Below, one piece after another: positions 11,363 through 37,920 of a stretch of 64,000 nt of DNA. The translations under genes and the position numbers were made by a program. The notes below the pieces were generated by a model. The model searched no databases, was not told the DNA's origin, and worked only from the letters and a program-made list of their open reading frames with translations. The stretch is from Microcoleus sp. (lineage in GTDB: Bacteria; Cyanobacteriota; Cyanobacteriia; Cyanobacteriales; Microcoleaceae), in NCBI GenBank assembly GCA_042408215.1, contig JAYFMW010000001.1, positions 32,001 through 96,000 on the forward strand, in the 5' to 3' direction. How positions within the stretch are numbered: the first letter of the stretch is position 1; every line of letters starts with the position of its first letter.

Positions 11363-11554
11363 ATAAAATAGTTTACAAAATGATTAAACTCAGCGAGACT
11401 GGCAAAGCCCGCTGATTTTCACAACCAGACCAAACCAGACGTGAGTTATTTTTAACAAATTACCTGATCTTATTCTACTCTGAGCTTCTAGGGCACCGAT
11501 CGACCCTTCGAGATCTCAACGGTAAAGCCCAATCTAATTCATCACAGATACCAT

Positions 11555-13258
11555 TTAACCCGGTAAAACTTGGTTGTTACTACCAAATTCTACTATGTAT
11601 TGGGGTGTATCCTCCCCAGCCTCAACCAAAGTTAAGGCGCTTAACGACTTCAACAGAATGTTGATTGCGCCGTTCCAATCCCTATCGATGATGTGTCCGC
11701 ACTCTGGACACTTAAACGTCTTAGAGCCACCGAGCTTTTTGTGGGCGTGCCCACATTTCGAGCAAGTCTTTGAAGTATATTCTTCGGTCACATCATGCAC
11801 GACAGAACCGCGCTTTTGCGCGTGAAACTTCAAGGTTTCCTTGAATCGGTAATGACCCCAAGACAACATACTCCGAGCGGTTTTAGACCGGATCTTGCGC
11901 TTCTTTCTGACCACCATTTGAGAGGTTTCAAAGGTTGGCAAAAAGATGTGCTTGTGCTGTTTGGTAAGGTATGCTGCAACGCGGTTATGAATGTCGTCAA
12001 TCAGGTTGGAAATCTTGACTCTGATTGACTTGGCAAGCTTGCGTAACTGCCACCTTTTCCGCTTATTAGAATGCCCCTTCAAGGTTGTCCACTGCGACTG
12101 AAGTCGATCTAAGCGCTGGCATAACGTCGCAATTCGACCAATCCCCGCAGGGGCGAACTCCGTAATTGATTGCCCGTCAAACCCGGTCAGAAAAGTTCTC
12201 ACGCCCGGATCTAGTGCAATTGCGTTATCAAACTGGTTCGCTTCAATCTGCATTGGAACGGCAAAGCAGATAAACCATCGACCCCGATCTATTACTACGG
12301 AGAAATCAGAAGGCATTTCTGTGCAAAGTGGCTCCGAGGGATTGATCTGAGCTTTCCCAAGTTGCCGGGGGTAGGTTGTGTTGTTTGTCCAGTTGTCAGA
12401 TTGCAACTTGATGCTTTGAACCTGCTCGCGACACGACCGAAACCGAGGATTGCGCTTGTCTTCGCACTTTTTGAATGCATCATGAGCGTCTAGAACTGCC
12501 GCGCCTCTTGGATTGTAGGGCGTTTCCTTCACCCAATCTGGCGCAAGATCGTTCACAATCTTGCGTAATTGAAACGCGGTTGGTCGCTTGCTTTTGTCGA
12601 TCCAGCAATCTCGCAGATAGGCGATTGCCGTGTTATATGACCACCGACTAGCCGCGATCCACGAACGCCACGCCACTCTCACGGGTATTTCCGGGTAAAC
12701 TCGGATCTTCTTTGATTTGAGCTTTGTATTTTCGGAGTCCGTAGAGCCGGCAACTAAAGACGTGGACGACGGCAAGGATATCTTCAACCATCTCTCGTTC
12801 TGGAGATAGGTCAGAGCGGTTGAGAACCACGAGTTTGCAATCAAATTGGTCGCACACCCATTGGATGAGTTCGACTCCGAATCGGGCGAGTCGGTCTTTG
12901 TAGCTGACCACAATTTGCTCGACATCTCCCGACAATACTTGTCCCAGAACGGATAGTAAGCCTTTGCGTCGGTAGTTGAGTCCCGATCCGATTTCTTTGA
13001 TGACTTCTCCTCCTGGGAACAGACTTTGGAGATAGTCAGCCTGTCGGTTAAGGTCGAGTCGCTGCTTGTGGCTACTGACTCGGCAATAGAGCAAAGTCTT
13101 TCTGACTTTGGTGGACTTTGGATCGAGGACACTATCGATGTCGTAGCGTCGATGTCCAGCCGGAGTTCTAATTGTTGCGATGCGTCCTGACTTGTCCCAG
13201 AGCCTAAGCGTTTTCTCCGAGACTTGGAGGATTTGCATCGCTTCCCGTGGTGTGACAT
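11555..13258 (-). CDS. tnpB: IS607-associated TnpB with rearranged RuvC-II (Fanzor2/pro-Fanzor-like); true start uncertain
   Basis: ALDPGVRTF (RuvC-I), IFLPTFET (canonical Glu replaced), VTEEYTSKTC, CxxC...CxxC, DRDWNGAINI (RuvC-III). Confidence 0.88.
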   Translation of the reverse strand: MSHHGKRCKSSKSRRKRLGSGTSQDASQQLELRLDIDATTSIVSSIQSPPKSERLCSIAESVATSSDSTLTDRLTISKVCSQEEKSSKKSDRDSTTDAKAYYPFWDKYCREMSSKLWSATKTDSPDSESNSSNGCATNLIANSWFSTALTYLQNERWLKISLPSSTSLVAGSTDSENTKLKSKKIRVYPEIPVRVAWRSWIAASRWSYNTAIAYLRDCWIDKSKRPTAFQLRKIVNDLAPDWVKETPYNPRGAAVLDAHDAFKKCEDKRNPRFRSCREQVQSIKLQSDNWTNNTTYPRQLGKAQINPSEPLCTEMPSDFSVVIDRGRWFICFAVPMQIEANQFDNAIALDPGVRTFLTGFDGQSITEFAPAGIGRIATLCQRLDRLQSQWTTLKGHSNKRKRWQLRKLAKSIRVKISNLIDDIHNRVAAYLTKQHKHIFLPTFETSQMVVRKKRKIRSKTARSMLSWGHYRFKETLKFHAQKRGSVVHDVTEEYTSKTCSKCGHAHKKLGGSKTFKCPECGHIIDRDWNGAINILLKSLSALTLVEAGEDTPQYIVEFGSNNQVLPG

Positions 13259-13342
13259 AGCGAACCATAAAAAACGTTGTAGACTTACCTCATTCTACAA
13301 CGTCTTACCGGATAATTCCCGGAATGTCTAGAAATTGACAGG
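11562..13342 (-). mobile_element. IS607-family element (tnpA + tnpB)
   Basis: Serine recombinase plus TnpB; GGTAA at both junctions (11562-11566, 13341-13345) fits the GG core used by IS607; no GCGATCGC seen inside. Confidence 0.88.
12648..13268 (-). CDS. tnpA: IS607 transposase (MerR-like HTH + serine recombinase)
   Basis: VSEKTLRLWD..G.I..IRTPAGHRRY; YCRVSS; EIGSGLN..RKGL; YKDRLARFG; FSCRLYGLR. Confidence 0.95.
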   Translation of the reverse strand: MVRYVTPREAMQILQVSEKTLRLWDKSGRIATIRTPAGHRRYDIDSVLDPKSTKVRKTLLYCRVSSHKQRLDLNRQADYLQSLFPGGEVIKEIGSGLNYRRKGLLSVLGQVLSGDVEQIVVSYKDRLARFGVELIQWVCDQFDCKLVVLNRSDLSPEREMVEDILAVVHVFSCRLYGLRKYKAQIKEDPSLPGNTRESGVAFVDRG

Positions 13343-13345
13343 TAA

Positions 13346-13939
13346 TCAACCTCTAATCCAATTGAGCACTTGGCCAGCTTCGTCCAAGCAGCCACCAAAA
13401 CAGATAATCCCGTCTTCGTGGCCCGCCATCGCCAGAATTTTGCGATCGCCTAAATTCTCTTCCTCAAAAAGTCTAAACATTTCTAAGGCCATCCCAGGAG
13501 TGCCATAAGGTATCTCTTTTCTAGTAGTCGGAATCTTAAACAACAGTTGCCGCCAGAGTTTAGGGTTATGAACGTGAATGATCCCGCCCACATCATCTCT
13601 GTGAAAGTACAGCGCCGCGTGAGTCAGCGACTCAGAAGAAGCTGGTACAGGGCCACGACAGCCGAGGAAATTTTGTTCTAAGTCAAATTCGGTGACAGTA
13701 CAGTAGGATTCAGGCCCCATCCTTGGCAAGTGTGCCGTCTGGGTGCCTGAAATAATGAATTGGCAAGAATTTCCGAGTCTGACACTAACATTGCCAAAGC
13801 CGATCCCATTGTCGTAGACACCAATTAGTCCCCACTCGTGGAGCCGATCGCGCCACTCCATCAAATCTGCCATACTTTCGGCCACAGAGGGCTCTGCGTG
13901 CGTCCAGTCACAGCGGTACTTAACGACACCTTCATCCAT
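13346..13939 (-). CDS. Class II aldolase/adducin family protein
   Basis: GFGNVSVR, FIISGTQT, SSESLTH, IIHVH, MAGHEDG; start at MDEGVVKY. Confidence 0.88.
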   Translation of the reverse strand: MDEGVVKYRCDWTHAEPSVAESMADLMEWRDRLHEWGLIGVYDNGIGFGNVSVRLGNSCQFIISGTQTAHLPRMGPESYCTVTEFDLEQNFLGCRGPVPASSESLTHAALYFHRDDVGGIIHVHNPKLWRQLLFKIPTTRKEIPYGTPGMALEMFRLFEEENLGDRKILAMAGHEDGIICFGGCLDEAGQVLNWIRG

Positions 13940-14502
13940 CAACTTTCCTGCCGATCGCGGGTCTTCAGACAGAGCTAGGCAAAGGGGAGCGAAGTTGTAC
14001 AACCGCTCTGTTTGCCACCTTCTGCATAACTGCATGAGTGTCTTGATTAGTCTAGTCCAGTGTCGCCGTAATTGGCTACTAACATTACCAAAAAGTGAAA
14101 TATTAAAGCAGAAAAAATTATGCCAAACATCATGATTTAGCCTCAACAGGCAATTACAAAAGTCCTATATGAAAATGCACGCTTTCTGGCCGGGAGTTTC
14201 ATGCCAGGCTTTTGCCCAAGTTTCTTCTGTGAAACCTCTTAACAGTCCTGAACATTTATTTATTAATCCTCAGCATTTATACTGATGTGGCTACCCCTAA
14301 TCACTATTTAACGCTGCACTATCTCTAAATCCGGCAAGTTTCCTAAAAGTCAACCGTATATTTACTGATTTTTTTGATCGTAGAGAGATTTAAGCGCTCG
14401 CACCAACTAATAAAATATTTGTTCATCAAAAAACCAGCCGATCGGGCCCAAGGGACCCGATCGGCTAAGCTCCGAGGATTGACTGCGATCGCCCACAGCC
14501 CT

Positions 14503-15922: not shown

Positions 15923-17278
15923 TTGACACTCCTCGGCTATCAGGCACGAGGATTCTTGGTTCAGTCAGTCGGCTTGCCCGTTGATGCTACCACCAACGAG
16001 TAGAGGTCGTTCTGTCCCCAAGCGTTAATTTCGGTGTGCCCCACCGTATTTAAATTAATTCCTGTTTGCCTCAATCCTTTCGCCAGAATATTCAGAGCTG
16101 CATTGTGGTCACGATCTAAAACTGTACCACAACTGCAAACATGAGTTCTAGTTGATAGCGTTTTCTTAACACTATTGCCACAGGTTGAGCAATCTTGAGA
16201 AGTATATTGAGGAGCAACAGCAACTACTGTTTTACCGTACACTTTTCCAAAATATTCTAAATAATGATCAAGTCTGCGACCACGCTGCATCACTAATTGA
16301 TTTAGCAAGCTTATGGTTTTTCACCATATTTTTAACCTGAAGGTTTTCGTAGGCTACGAAATCGCTAGATTTCACCACGCACAACGCCGTCTTTATGGCG
16401 AAGTCTTTGCGTTGCCTACTGACTTTCAGGTGTTTCCTTCCTAACTTGTTAATTGCCTTCTTACGATTACTAGAACCTTTCTTTTTTCGGGAAACTCGTT
16501 TCTGTGTTCGCTTTAAAGCTTTTTCGCTTTTACGAAGATGCCGAGGGTTGGGAACCGTGTCACCGTCGCTATCAGTGTAGAAATGGTTTAAACCTACATC
16601 TATTCCAATAGCTTTACCTGTAGGAATAGATTCCTCTGTTCGTTCTACATTGATACAAAACTGAGCATAATACCCATCGGCGCGACGAACTACCCTGATT
16701 CGCTTAATTTCATCAGGTGCGTAGAAGTGCAAATCTCTACTACCGAGTAACCTAAAGGTTCCAGCGGCAAAGCCATCTGTGAAAGTGAGACATCTTTTGT
16801 CTGTAGAAAGCGACCATCCTGATGTCTTATATTCTACGGAACGAGTTTGCTTTTTAAATTGTGGATATCCCTTTTTTCCTGGCTTCTTAGCTTTGCAATT
16901 CGAGAAAAAACGTAGGATAGCAAAAATGGCACGTTCAGCAGAAGCTTGACGTGCCATCGAGTTAAGTTTTCCTGCCCATTCAAACTCTTTGGCCATGATG
17001 GCGCATTGTTTGTATAGATCAACTAACTTAACTACTTGATTGTCGATCCAATATCTAAGAGTTTTGTTTCGGACAAATTGAGCTGTGCGGATCATTTCGT
17101 CTATGACCCGATATTGCTGCGCTTTGCCCTTTAACTTAAACTCTAGTACAATCATGCTATTATTCTCTCGTTTTTGCAGAGCATTGTATTCGCAAAGTGC
17201 ATATATTTAAGAATTGTTTACACTTTATAGAAATTAAAGCCGTCCTAGAAGGACGGGGCTTTAGACCCATGTTTTTCG
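15923..17278 (-). mobile_element. IS200/IS605-family (tnpB only) element
   Basis: Left end TTAC|CGAAAAACATGGG followed by the CCGTCCTTCTAGGACGG hairpin; right end hairpin CCTCG..CGAGG ending GTGTCAA. Confidence 0.85.
15961..17155 (-). pseudogene. tnpB: tnpB split by a frameshift near 16272
   Basis: GIDVGL, VAYENL, SISDAAWSQ in one frame; LEYFGKVYG, CSTC, DRDHNAA in the next; one extra base explains the shift. Confidence 0.9.
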
Positions 17279-36611: not shown

Positions 36612-37920
36612 TTGAAATACTCACCGGGCTAAAGCCACGGTGATTCTTGACGCTTCATCGGGTTCTGCTACCGAAATAGTCTGACAATCCCTCTGCGCCC
36701 GTTTAGAGTCGTGGCGATTTCCCATCCCGACTTTCTCAATATTTTTAGCTGCATTTTCATCTCTATCTTGTTCAGTGCCACAATTCAAGCAAAGCACTGA
36801 GCGGATAGACAAGTCGATTTTGCCCCATTTAAAGCCACAGTCTGAACATATCTGACTGGTTGGTTCCCATCGACTAATTACTTTGAACTCTCTGCCAAAC
36901 TTTTCAGACTTAGCCTCGCAAAGCGTTCGGAATTCGTACCAGCCTTGCTGACTAATTGCCTTTGAGAGTTTCCGGTTCTTGACCATGCCCGATACATTTA
37001 AATCTTCCAAAACAATCACTTGGTTTTCGTTGACTATTTTGGTGGACAATTTGTGCAAGAAATCTTTGCGAGTATCGGCAATGCGGTTGTGCAGTTTAGC
37101 GATTCTAATCCGAGTTACATTCCTTCGTTTAGAGTCTTTGGGCTGGCGGGCTAATTTGCGCTGTAGTTTGCGAACATTCCGGTCTAGTTTCTTATAGCTA
37201 GGACTTTCGGCTTTCTCGCCGTTACTCATTACCGCGAAGGTTTTGATTCCTAAGTCAATTCCGACACTAGGGTTTTTAGCCTCAGACTGAATTGATTGAA
37301 TTTCTACTACAAAACTCAGGAAATAACGATTTGCACAATCTTTGATTACCGTAACGGAACTGGGTTCAGACGGTAGCTCTCTCGACCAAATTGGGTTAAC
37401 AATTCCAATCTTGGCTAGATAAACTCCATCACCTTTCAAGGAAAATCCACGAAGAGTAAATCTTGCCGATTGACTGCTGGTTCGTTTTTTGAATTTAGGA
37501 TATCCGATTTTACGTCCTTTTCGATTGCCTTTACAGGAATTGAAAAAGTTCTTAAAAGCAATATCCAAGTCGGCAACGGACTGTTGTAAAGGAACGCATG
37601 ACACATTCTCCAGCCAAGTTCTTTCCTCAGTTTGTTTTGCCCCGGTTATGACAATTTTTTGCAAATCTGCCGAACTTGGCTTTTTCTCGGACTGTTTGCA
37701 GAGGGCAAGCGCATCGTTCCAGACCACTCGAACGCAACCAAATAGCTGAGCAAGGCTCTGTTGCTGTTGGTCGGTTGGGTAGAATCTGTAGCGATATCTT
37801 GCTTTCATTATTTACTATTATTTGATTGTTTTATTTTACTATGTATTGCTGATACAATTAACAGGAATGAAGAAAATTAAATCCGTCCTATAAGGACGGG
37901 GCTTCAGACCCCGTTTTTTG
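36612..37920 (-). mobile_element. IS200/IS605-family (tnpB only) element
   Basis: Left end TCAC|CAAAAAACGGGG followed by the CCGTCCTTATAGGACGG hairpin (near-identical to the 17.2-kb element); right end CACCG..CGGTG hairpin ending TTCAA. Confidence 0.85.
36621..37808 (-). CDS. tnpB: TnpB RNA-guided endonuclease, apparently intact
   Basis: YRYRFYPT, GIDLG, IVLEDL, CSDC...CLNC, DRDENAA (canonical D-E-D). Confidence 0.95.
   Translation of the reverse strand: MKARYRYRFYPTDQQQQSLAQLFGCVRVVWNDALALCKQSEKKPSSADLQKIVITGAKQTEERTWLENVSCVPLQQSVADLDIAFKNFFNSCKGNRKGRKIGYPKFKKRTSSQSARFTLRGFSLKGDGVYLAKIGIVNPIWSRELPSEPSSVTVIKDCANRYFLSFVVEIQSIQSEAKNPSVGIDLGIKTFAVMSNGEKAESPSYKKLDRNVRKLQRKLARQPKDSKRRNVTRIRIAKLHNRIADTRKDFLHKLSTKIVNENQVIVLEDLNVSGMVKNRKLSKAISQQGWYEFRTLCEAKSEKFGREFKVISRWEPTSQICSDCGFKWGKIDLSIRSVLCLNCGTEQDRDENAAKNIEKVGMGNRHDSKRAQRDCQTISVAEPDEASRITVALAR

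Follow-up and report, generated by a model that had tools for sequence, protein, structure and literature searches.

Positions 11547-13363 (minus strand) of the window, the 64,000-nucleotide stretch of Microcoleus sp. DNA analysed here, are an intact insertion sequence of the IS607 family that carries tnpA and a gene for a pro-Fanzor TnpB, and the reading frame of TnpB overlaps that of tnpA. The overlap is likely to be translated, a reading to which a probability of about 0.8 is assigned, and would give TnpB an overprinted N-terminal domain of the Fanzor2 type. The element is recently mobile, as there are strains with and without the insertion and two insertion sites. The type of element is already known; what is new relative to the literature searched is a nuclease domain that would be coded inside a transposase gene.

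The element and its two genes

The element, its genes and the interrupted host gene have the following features, all on the minus strand.

11547..13363, minus: IS607-family element, 1817 nt between two core dinucleotides, placed by empty-site and second-site breakpoints
12648..13268, minus: tnpA, IS607 serine transposase of 206 aa with MerR-like HTH and resolvase domain, RVSS at residues 63-66
11555..13258, minus: pro-Fanzor TnpB open reading frame, 567 aa counted from the first ATG, in the +1 frame of tnpA
12209..12211, minus: RuvC-I Asp350 (DPG, residues 350-352), by motif match and alignment
11936..11938, minus: Pro441 at the canonical RuvC-II Glu column (IFLPTF, residues 438-443), by alignment of same-genome TnpBs
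11783..11785, minus: relocated RuvC-II Glu492 (VTEEYTS, residues 490-496), invariant among 88 aligned relatives
11699..11764, minus: Cys4 zinc finger, C499, C502, C517 and C520
11678..11680, minus: RuvC-III Asp527 (DRD, residues 525-527), by alignment
13346..14146, minus: class II aldolase/adducin-family host gene, interrupted five codons before its stop and ending NWIRG-stop, not SAVMN-stop

TnpA of this element is a serine recombinase with the N-terminal HTH that the IS607 family calls for, scoring 193.6 bits against the IS607 transposase model NF033518 (cut-off 110) and containing the MerR and Resolvase Pfam domains. The TnpB frame scores 164 bits against NF040570 (cut-off 100), the published pro-Fanzor regular expression matches it at residues 350-527, and Glu492 lies six residues ahead of the first CxxC. 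The preliminary description, made from the sequence alone, had reported an intact tnpA serine recombinase and, in TnpB, DPG, Pro in IFLPTF, Glu in VTEEYTS, a zinc finger and DRD, and all of these are present; its complete IS607 element at 11555..13342 is correctly identified but too short at both ends, the true ends being 11547 and 13363. With 105 TnpBs of the genome aligned, the Pro441 column holds Glu in 81 of the 93 sequences outside the pro-Fanzor clade and the Glu492 column holds mostly Pro or Arg in them. DPG alone is not diagnostic, because it also occurs in TnpBs of another clade in the same genome. That the protein is an intact RNA-guided nuclease, as also proposed earlier, may reasonably be inferred. 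At the host locus, the insertion supplies five new codons and a stop to the class II aldolase gene, the length of which is unchanged. A gene near the element belongs to the Npun_F5560 family by profile match, and this, together with the named relatives of TnpB, marks the host as a cyanobacterium.

The assignment of TnpB to the pro-Fanzors is upheld by its motifs, by profile and fold likeness to ApmFz2 and by phylogeny. The best solved relative by single sequence (E 7.8e-24), by profile and by fold is the mimivirus Fanzor2 9B0L. On a FastTree phylogeny of 154 RuvC regions, among which ApmFz2 is not represented, TnpB falls in a 58-row clade (SH 96) that stands apart from the 96 other TnpB rows and takes in all profile-found relatives used (every second row of 88) as well as five proteins from giant-virus MAGs; the inner order of the clade is unsure because of long branches. 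TnpB thereby groups with giant-virus-MAG Fanzor2 proteins and not with unrelated TnpB clades, the outcome on which the earlier assignment had been made to depend. Fanzor2 proper belongs to a eukaryote or a eukaryotic virus, whereas the best 80 genome loci were titled as cyanobacteria or uncultured bacteria, and the element is a member of the published pro-Fanzor IS607 class, not Fanzor2 proper. Passages on pro-Fanzors/TnpB2 in PMC10711439 describe the same IS607 tnpA, DPG, Glu six residues before the first CxxC, cyanobacterial relatives and dinucleotide-core ends. ApmFz2/L79 of Acanthamoeba polyphaga mimivirus (9B0L), as described in parts of PMC11832414, shares the rearranged triad and the zinc finger at about 20% identity in the structural alignment. 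Canonical IS607 elements and IStrons, according to passages of 10.1101/2023.11.20.567912, share the serine transposase, the core dinucleotide and a TAM equal to the target motif, together with a circle intermediate and a pseudoknotted omegaRNA, both of which would be expected for the element here; in the canonical elements the RuvC-II Glu is in place and the tnpA/tnpB overlap is at most a few codons. The element here has no intron.

The own genome contains eleven further pro-Fanzor IS607 elements of several subfamilies (L023-L034), some of them paired at 88-98% identity in different flanks. One of these, L023 (G000:C17, ~755,000-756,500), is otherwise whole and has APG in place of DPG at RuvC-I, a probable nuclease-dead copy. 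The subfamily of L028, L032 and L033 lacks the zinc-finger cysteines (TSKTVSW) and yet has the overlap and a GG core. Among 108 distinct TnpB frames of the genome, 11 have the relocated Glu without an IS607 tnpA or N-terminal extension, and one such copy lies at ~36700-37800 of the window. A canonical TnpB with the YENL Glu retained lies at 15961-17155 (minus strand), split in two frames near 16270, and is apparently a frameshifted IS605-type passenger; pairwise BLAST of the pro-Fanzor TnpB against this neighbouring canonical TnpB gave nothing significant. Near-identical copies of the element were found neither in the own genome (best 73%) nor in 143 genomes of the family (best full matches 74%), a metagenome scan with the single TnpB protein returned no matches, and a TnpA scan of viral contigs returned one partial locus.

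The open frame across tnpA

The stretch of the overlap that is conserved as a motif is listed below.

12812..12958, minus: putative overprinted N-terminal domain, TnpB aa 101-149, PFW..C.E.S..LW..T.TD...NSWFS, at tnpA codons ~104-153

The TnpB frame overlaps 611 nt of tnpA, nearly the whole gene, in +1 and without a stop; its open stretch extends from a point ahead of the tnpA start to 9 nt short of the outer end of the element. Synonymous recoding of tnpA with genome codon usage gives 10.8 expected +1 stops against the 0 observed (P = 2.4e-7); openness from tnpA codon 95 on has P = 4e-5, and permuting tnpA's own codons gives P = 0.002. In a sample of 56 distinct tnpAs chosen by TnpA family and not by TnpB, 41 have 10-25 stops in +1 and 15 have 0-2; all 15 adjoin a TnpB of the pro-Fanzor clade, and the overlap is absent from the 41 others. 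A TnpB profile returned 160 loci, 138 of them with a tnpA match, which lies on the same strand with TnpB in +1 in 137, and the median overlap in 80 intact elements is 589 nt; ranking by a full-length query favours extended copies and kin are not independent, so these counts overstate the overlap. The second frame is open to an extent that chance does not explain, and it is under selection. As tnpA homologues that lack the overlap are widespread and only this clade has the motif, tnpA is probably the older frame.

Selection on the +1 frame is seen at single codons. Across 88 aligned rows W105 is conserved in 73, S143 in 87 and W144 in 85, and, given the TnpA residue pairs, W144 is kept in 57/59 elements against 15-22 expected; the corresponding values given the TnpA residues are 58/59 against 13-21 for S143 and 49/54 against 10-11 for P103. 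All 14 of the +1 positions tested exceed the synonymous expectation. The motif is retained in the TnpB frame at 12 of 22 loci without a tnpA match, and several tnpA-less copies start with an ATG ~10 residues before it. At seven giant-virus-MAG loci the overlap is kept in two (L208, L308), and the motif alone in two (L304, L224); two (L195, L200) lack the motif, and one is truncated. None of the 93 same-genome TnpBs outside the clade has the motif, including the 11 with relocated Glu and no IS607 partner. Two clade members in the own genome are broken downstream of the motif, and TnpB aa 1-92 are poorly conserved. In several of the further own-genome elements tnpA is interrupted by a stop but the TnpB frame that overlaps it is still open, and viral (phage) contigs (L201-L223) hold multiple copies in which tnpA is lost or decayed and the motif is kept as a short ordinary N-terminus.

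Profile and model comparisons with ApmFz2 bear on what the overlap would encode. The alignment of the TnpB profile to ApmFz2 starts at residue 77 (E 2e-66, the next natural TnpB being 1e-25) and places NSWF of the overlap on N82-S83-W84-Y85 of RuvC-R, and the PFW half of the motif has no sequence alignment to ApmFz2 in this profile. AlphaFold2, applied to aa 90-567 with 88 sequences and without templates (aa 1-92 left out), gave a model of pLDDT 82.5 in which the overlap forms a helix and a strand, with pLDDT 74-81 for aa 100-119 and 87 for aa 140-149; the domain linkers (model residues 31-47 and 66-87) are of low confidence. The part corresponding to the ApmFz2-type thumb region is also of low confidence, and the RuvC-R part aligns by profile and model. 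Among 50 structural matches listed, 9B0L (Z 26.2, rmsd 4.1, 404 aligned) was the only one aligned from model residue 12 (chain residue 53), the others starting at model residue 75 or later. The overlap therefore likely encodes, as far as sequence and model comparison go, the N-terminal domain so far called unique to Fanzor2: parts of PMC11832414 describe this domain of ApmFz2 as structured, RNA-contacting and unique to Fanzor2 among TnpB structures. The same parts describe a disordered basic N-terminus followed by a domain with N-S-W-aromatic, a likeness that TnpB here would share, and an RNA pseudoknot at the scaffold 3' end, which is predicted here. The difference is that the domain is an ordinary N-terminus in mimivirus Fanzor2 and would be coded inside tnpA here.

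Translation of TnpB would start near the 5' end of tnpA, most simply at the ATG 10 nt after the tnpA start, giving ~90-100 disordered, Ser/Lys-rich residues and then the helix and strand (aa 101-149), which, by analogy with RuvC-R in ApmFz2, may dock on RuvC and touch the RNA pseudoknot. The start codon varies among relatives, lying at tnpA codon ~2-6, 22-24 or as far in as 89, and in most intact elements no more than ~25 codons separate the tnpA start from the point where the +1 frame opens. The domain could also be real and be reached by a programmed +1 frameshift near the tnpA 5' end, or from several alternative starts, with a short TnpA-TnpB fusion made at low level; the frame does open far upstream of the motif in most intact elements, and the ATG at +10 is possibly a by-product of Tyr-Val codons and is missing from some relatives. 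This is nevertheless unlikely, as an in-frame ATG lies upstream of the motif in 79 of the 80 intact elements, the opening point ranges from -25 to +78 codons with no common shift site noticed, and tnpA-less copies begin with an ATG shortly before the motif.

The persistence of the motif after tnpA loss, its counterpart in a structured, RNA-contacting part of ApmFz2 (in the parts of PMC11832414 cited above), the 10-25 stops in the 41 other IS607 tnpAs and a codon choice that favours the +1 residues beyond the needs of TnpA all speak against a TnpB that starts near the HTH, leaving the open +1 frame as an untranslated by-product of TnpA residues or of a constraint at the DNA or RNA level. Such a frame is highly improbable, although some +1 residues partly follow conserved TnpA pairs (DR giving T, VL giving F) and TTG/GTG codons lie close to the HTH in many relatives. 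Under the preferred reading, a translated overlap, the domain would stay as an ordinary N-terminus once tnpA is lost, which is the state in mimivirus Fanzor2.

Ends, target motif and predicted RNA

The ends and the predicted RNA features, again on the minus strand, are as follows.

13364..13367, minus: left flank and target motif, the predicted TAM, GCTC in the window and GCTG in the empty site and in runs X5 and X8
13269..13363, minus: left end, 95 nt, with GGTAA-type repeats and a hairpin
11545..11546, minus: right core dinucleotide TG, from run contigs and family alignment
11525..11544, minus: predicted guide (right flank), the flank beyond the core, starting at or just after 11544
11547..11690, minus: predicted omegaRNA scaffold, overlapping the last TnpB codons, 5' limit approximate
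11602..11617, minus: hairpin with loop GATAC (11611-11607), predicted to pair with GTATC (11551-11547) as a pseudoknot

The empty site in genome G005 reads GTGC-TG-TCGGCTGTGATG, both flanks being 97-98% identical to the window, and the same joint (11547 to 13365) occurs in four of eight sequencing runs (X2, X6, X9, X12). Six of the eight runs contain nearly the same element (~2 letters different) with another right flank starting exactly at 11545, three have a different left flank from 13363 on with TG adjoining, and one contig of X8 holds the filled locus with TG at both sides and the full target. Because the breakpoints in the empty and second sites lie at 11545 and 13363, the element is 11547-13363 with crossover at TG. 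The dinucleotide shared in IS607 crossover is thus TG: X8 and the second site have it on either side of the element, the empty site has it once, and there are neither terminal inverted repeats nor a longer duplication. The interrupted host gene takes its final five codons and its stop from the first 18 nt of the left end. Right ends of relatives are conserved through TATCTG and then diverge, and the left junction is RCTG in 30 of 34 rows of the TG-core subfamily (of which ~9 repeat one insertion seen via another collection), RGTG in 3 and GCTC in the window; other subfamilies have AG, CG or GG cores. A TAM of RCTG or CTG and a guide from 11544 are predicted, since the IS607 TAM equals the target motif by the rule published in passages of 10.1101/2023.11.20.567912 and PMC10711439, target sites being the sole source for the TAM. 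By comparison, ISXfa1, the element tested in PMC10711439, has a GG core and a GGG TAM in the passages that describe it, and ApmFz2 has a GGG TAM and a longer scaffold than that predicted here in those of PMC11832414.

The preliminary description had instead taken TTACC words at both junctions as the ends, with a TAM ending in CC and a guide from 11561. TTACC is indeed present near both ends, but the words (13345-13341 and 11566-11562, minus strand) lie inside the element, 11566-11545 is conserved family-wide with divergence only after TATCTG, and the empty and alternative sites break at 11545/13363, with no TTACC joint in the runs examined. The empty sites found (G005, X2, X6, X9, X12) read differently from the one predicted, with junctions unlike those proposed. 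The TG core and RCTG-type target of the empty and second sites refute a TAM ending in CC, and the guide from 11561 fails likewise, being mostly right-end scaffold, with the flank starting beyond 11545. This placement of the ends is scarcely credible.

The last two letters of the target motif at 13364..13367 are the crossover core, and these are TC in the window copy, whereas X5 and X8 have TG. Mismatched left and right IS607 cores can arise at integration, according to passages of 10.1101/2023.11.20.567912. The window copy has two further one-letter differences from all four runs compared, at 12032 (synonymous) and 13320 (in the left end), and on account of these and the TC left core its function may be impaired, or the sequence may contain errors of assembly. 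Directly after the right core, 7 nt that are present in X8, X3 and X13 are missing from the window allele and from X5; the shortened guide of the window allele nonetheless has a match in the empty site, 7 nt farther along and likewise preceded by GCTG.

The predicted, covarying pseudoknot at the right end supports, at the sequence level, the element boundary and a scaffold end at the core, where its GTATC partner places it, directly before the dinucleotide. Counted sequence by sequence, a complementary loop occurs in 56 of the 60 distinct right ends, where permuted 5-mers give 12%; these ends were picked with patterns drawn from the same set, and kin are not independent. With GATAC/GTATC there are five compensatory pair types, the others being GACGG/CCGTC, GATTC/GAATC, GACAC/GTGTC and GATAG/CTATC. 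A pseudoknot of the same kind is described for TnpB and ApmFz2 RNAs in passages of 10.1101/2023.11.20.567912 and PMC11832414. The region 11525-11740 (216 nt) folds better than 200 of 200 shuffles (z = -3.76). Stems cannot be aligned from one subfamily to another, and RNAalifold over 26 mixed right ends, three of which stop short of the end, accordingly gave only a weak consensus (-4.7 kcal/mol); an Rfam search of the right end gave one match at chance level and none above it, and a promoter scan found 1 site against 2.0 expected by chance. The interval 11545-11690 is in triple use, for it codes for the C-terminus of TnpB, holds the predicted RNA scaffold and makes up the right end of the transposon, and in most relatives the TnpB stop lies 9-10 nt before the element end. 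A 141-nt piece at L064:1490-1641, 89% identical to the right end, ends in TATCTG with the rest unmatched and is possibly an orphan omegaRNA or a remnant.

From IS607 biology, TnpA would excise the element as a circle and reinsert it by crossover at the TG core within 5'-RCTG. The right-end transcript would fold as an omegaRNA, with its pseudoknot closing directly ahead of the core and the flank beyond serving as guide, and TnpB would cut the empty allele beside an RCTG-type TAM, so that repair from the filled copy retains the element. No end-to-end joint of a circular excision intermediate was found in the eight runs, the data being contigs, which drop rare forms.

A proposed origin of the Fanzor2 N-terminus

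No report of the tnpA/TnpB overlap was found in the literature searched; subscription journals, ISfinder and bioRxiv supplements, which lay outside its scope, may mention it. It does not appear in passages of PMC10711439, PMC10530073, PMC13565253 and 10.1101/2023.11.20.567912, and the words 'overlap', 'reading frame' and 'N-terminal' do not occur in the portions of the main text and supplement of PMC10711439 that were searched.

Taken as a whole, it seems on balance probable that Fanzor2 owes its RNA-binding N-terminal domain, and probably the basic disordered leader (the viral nuclear signal) too, to a de novo birth in the +1 frame of tnpA in a bacterial ancestor, that the overlap is a founding trait of the pro-Fanzor/Fanzor2 lineage, that the domain is needed for activity, and that the subfamilies with TG, AG, CG and GG cores are compact nucleases with matching short TAMs, here RCTG. 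What the window copy contributes is a set of exact ends, empty and filled alleles that occur naturally, a second insertion site, a non-GG target (TG/RCTG) and codon-level statistics, and the ends, alleles, second site and target make the TAM, the guide and the requirement for the domain directly testable. If this origin is true, the overlap would be a rare de novo overprinted domain with a descendant of solved structure, RuvC-R of ApmFz2, cloning pro-Fanzors from the customary start near the HTH would leave the domain out, and the origin of the 'unique' N-terminus of Fanzor2 would be explained.
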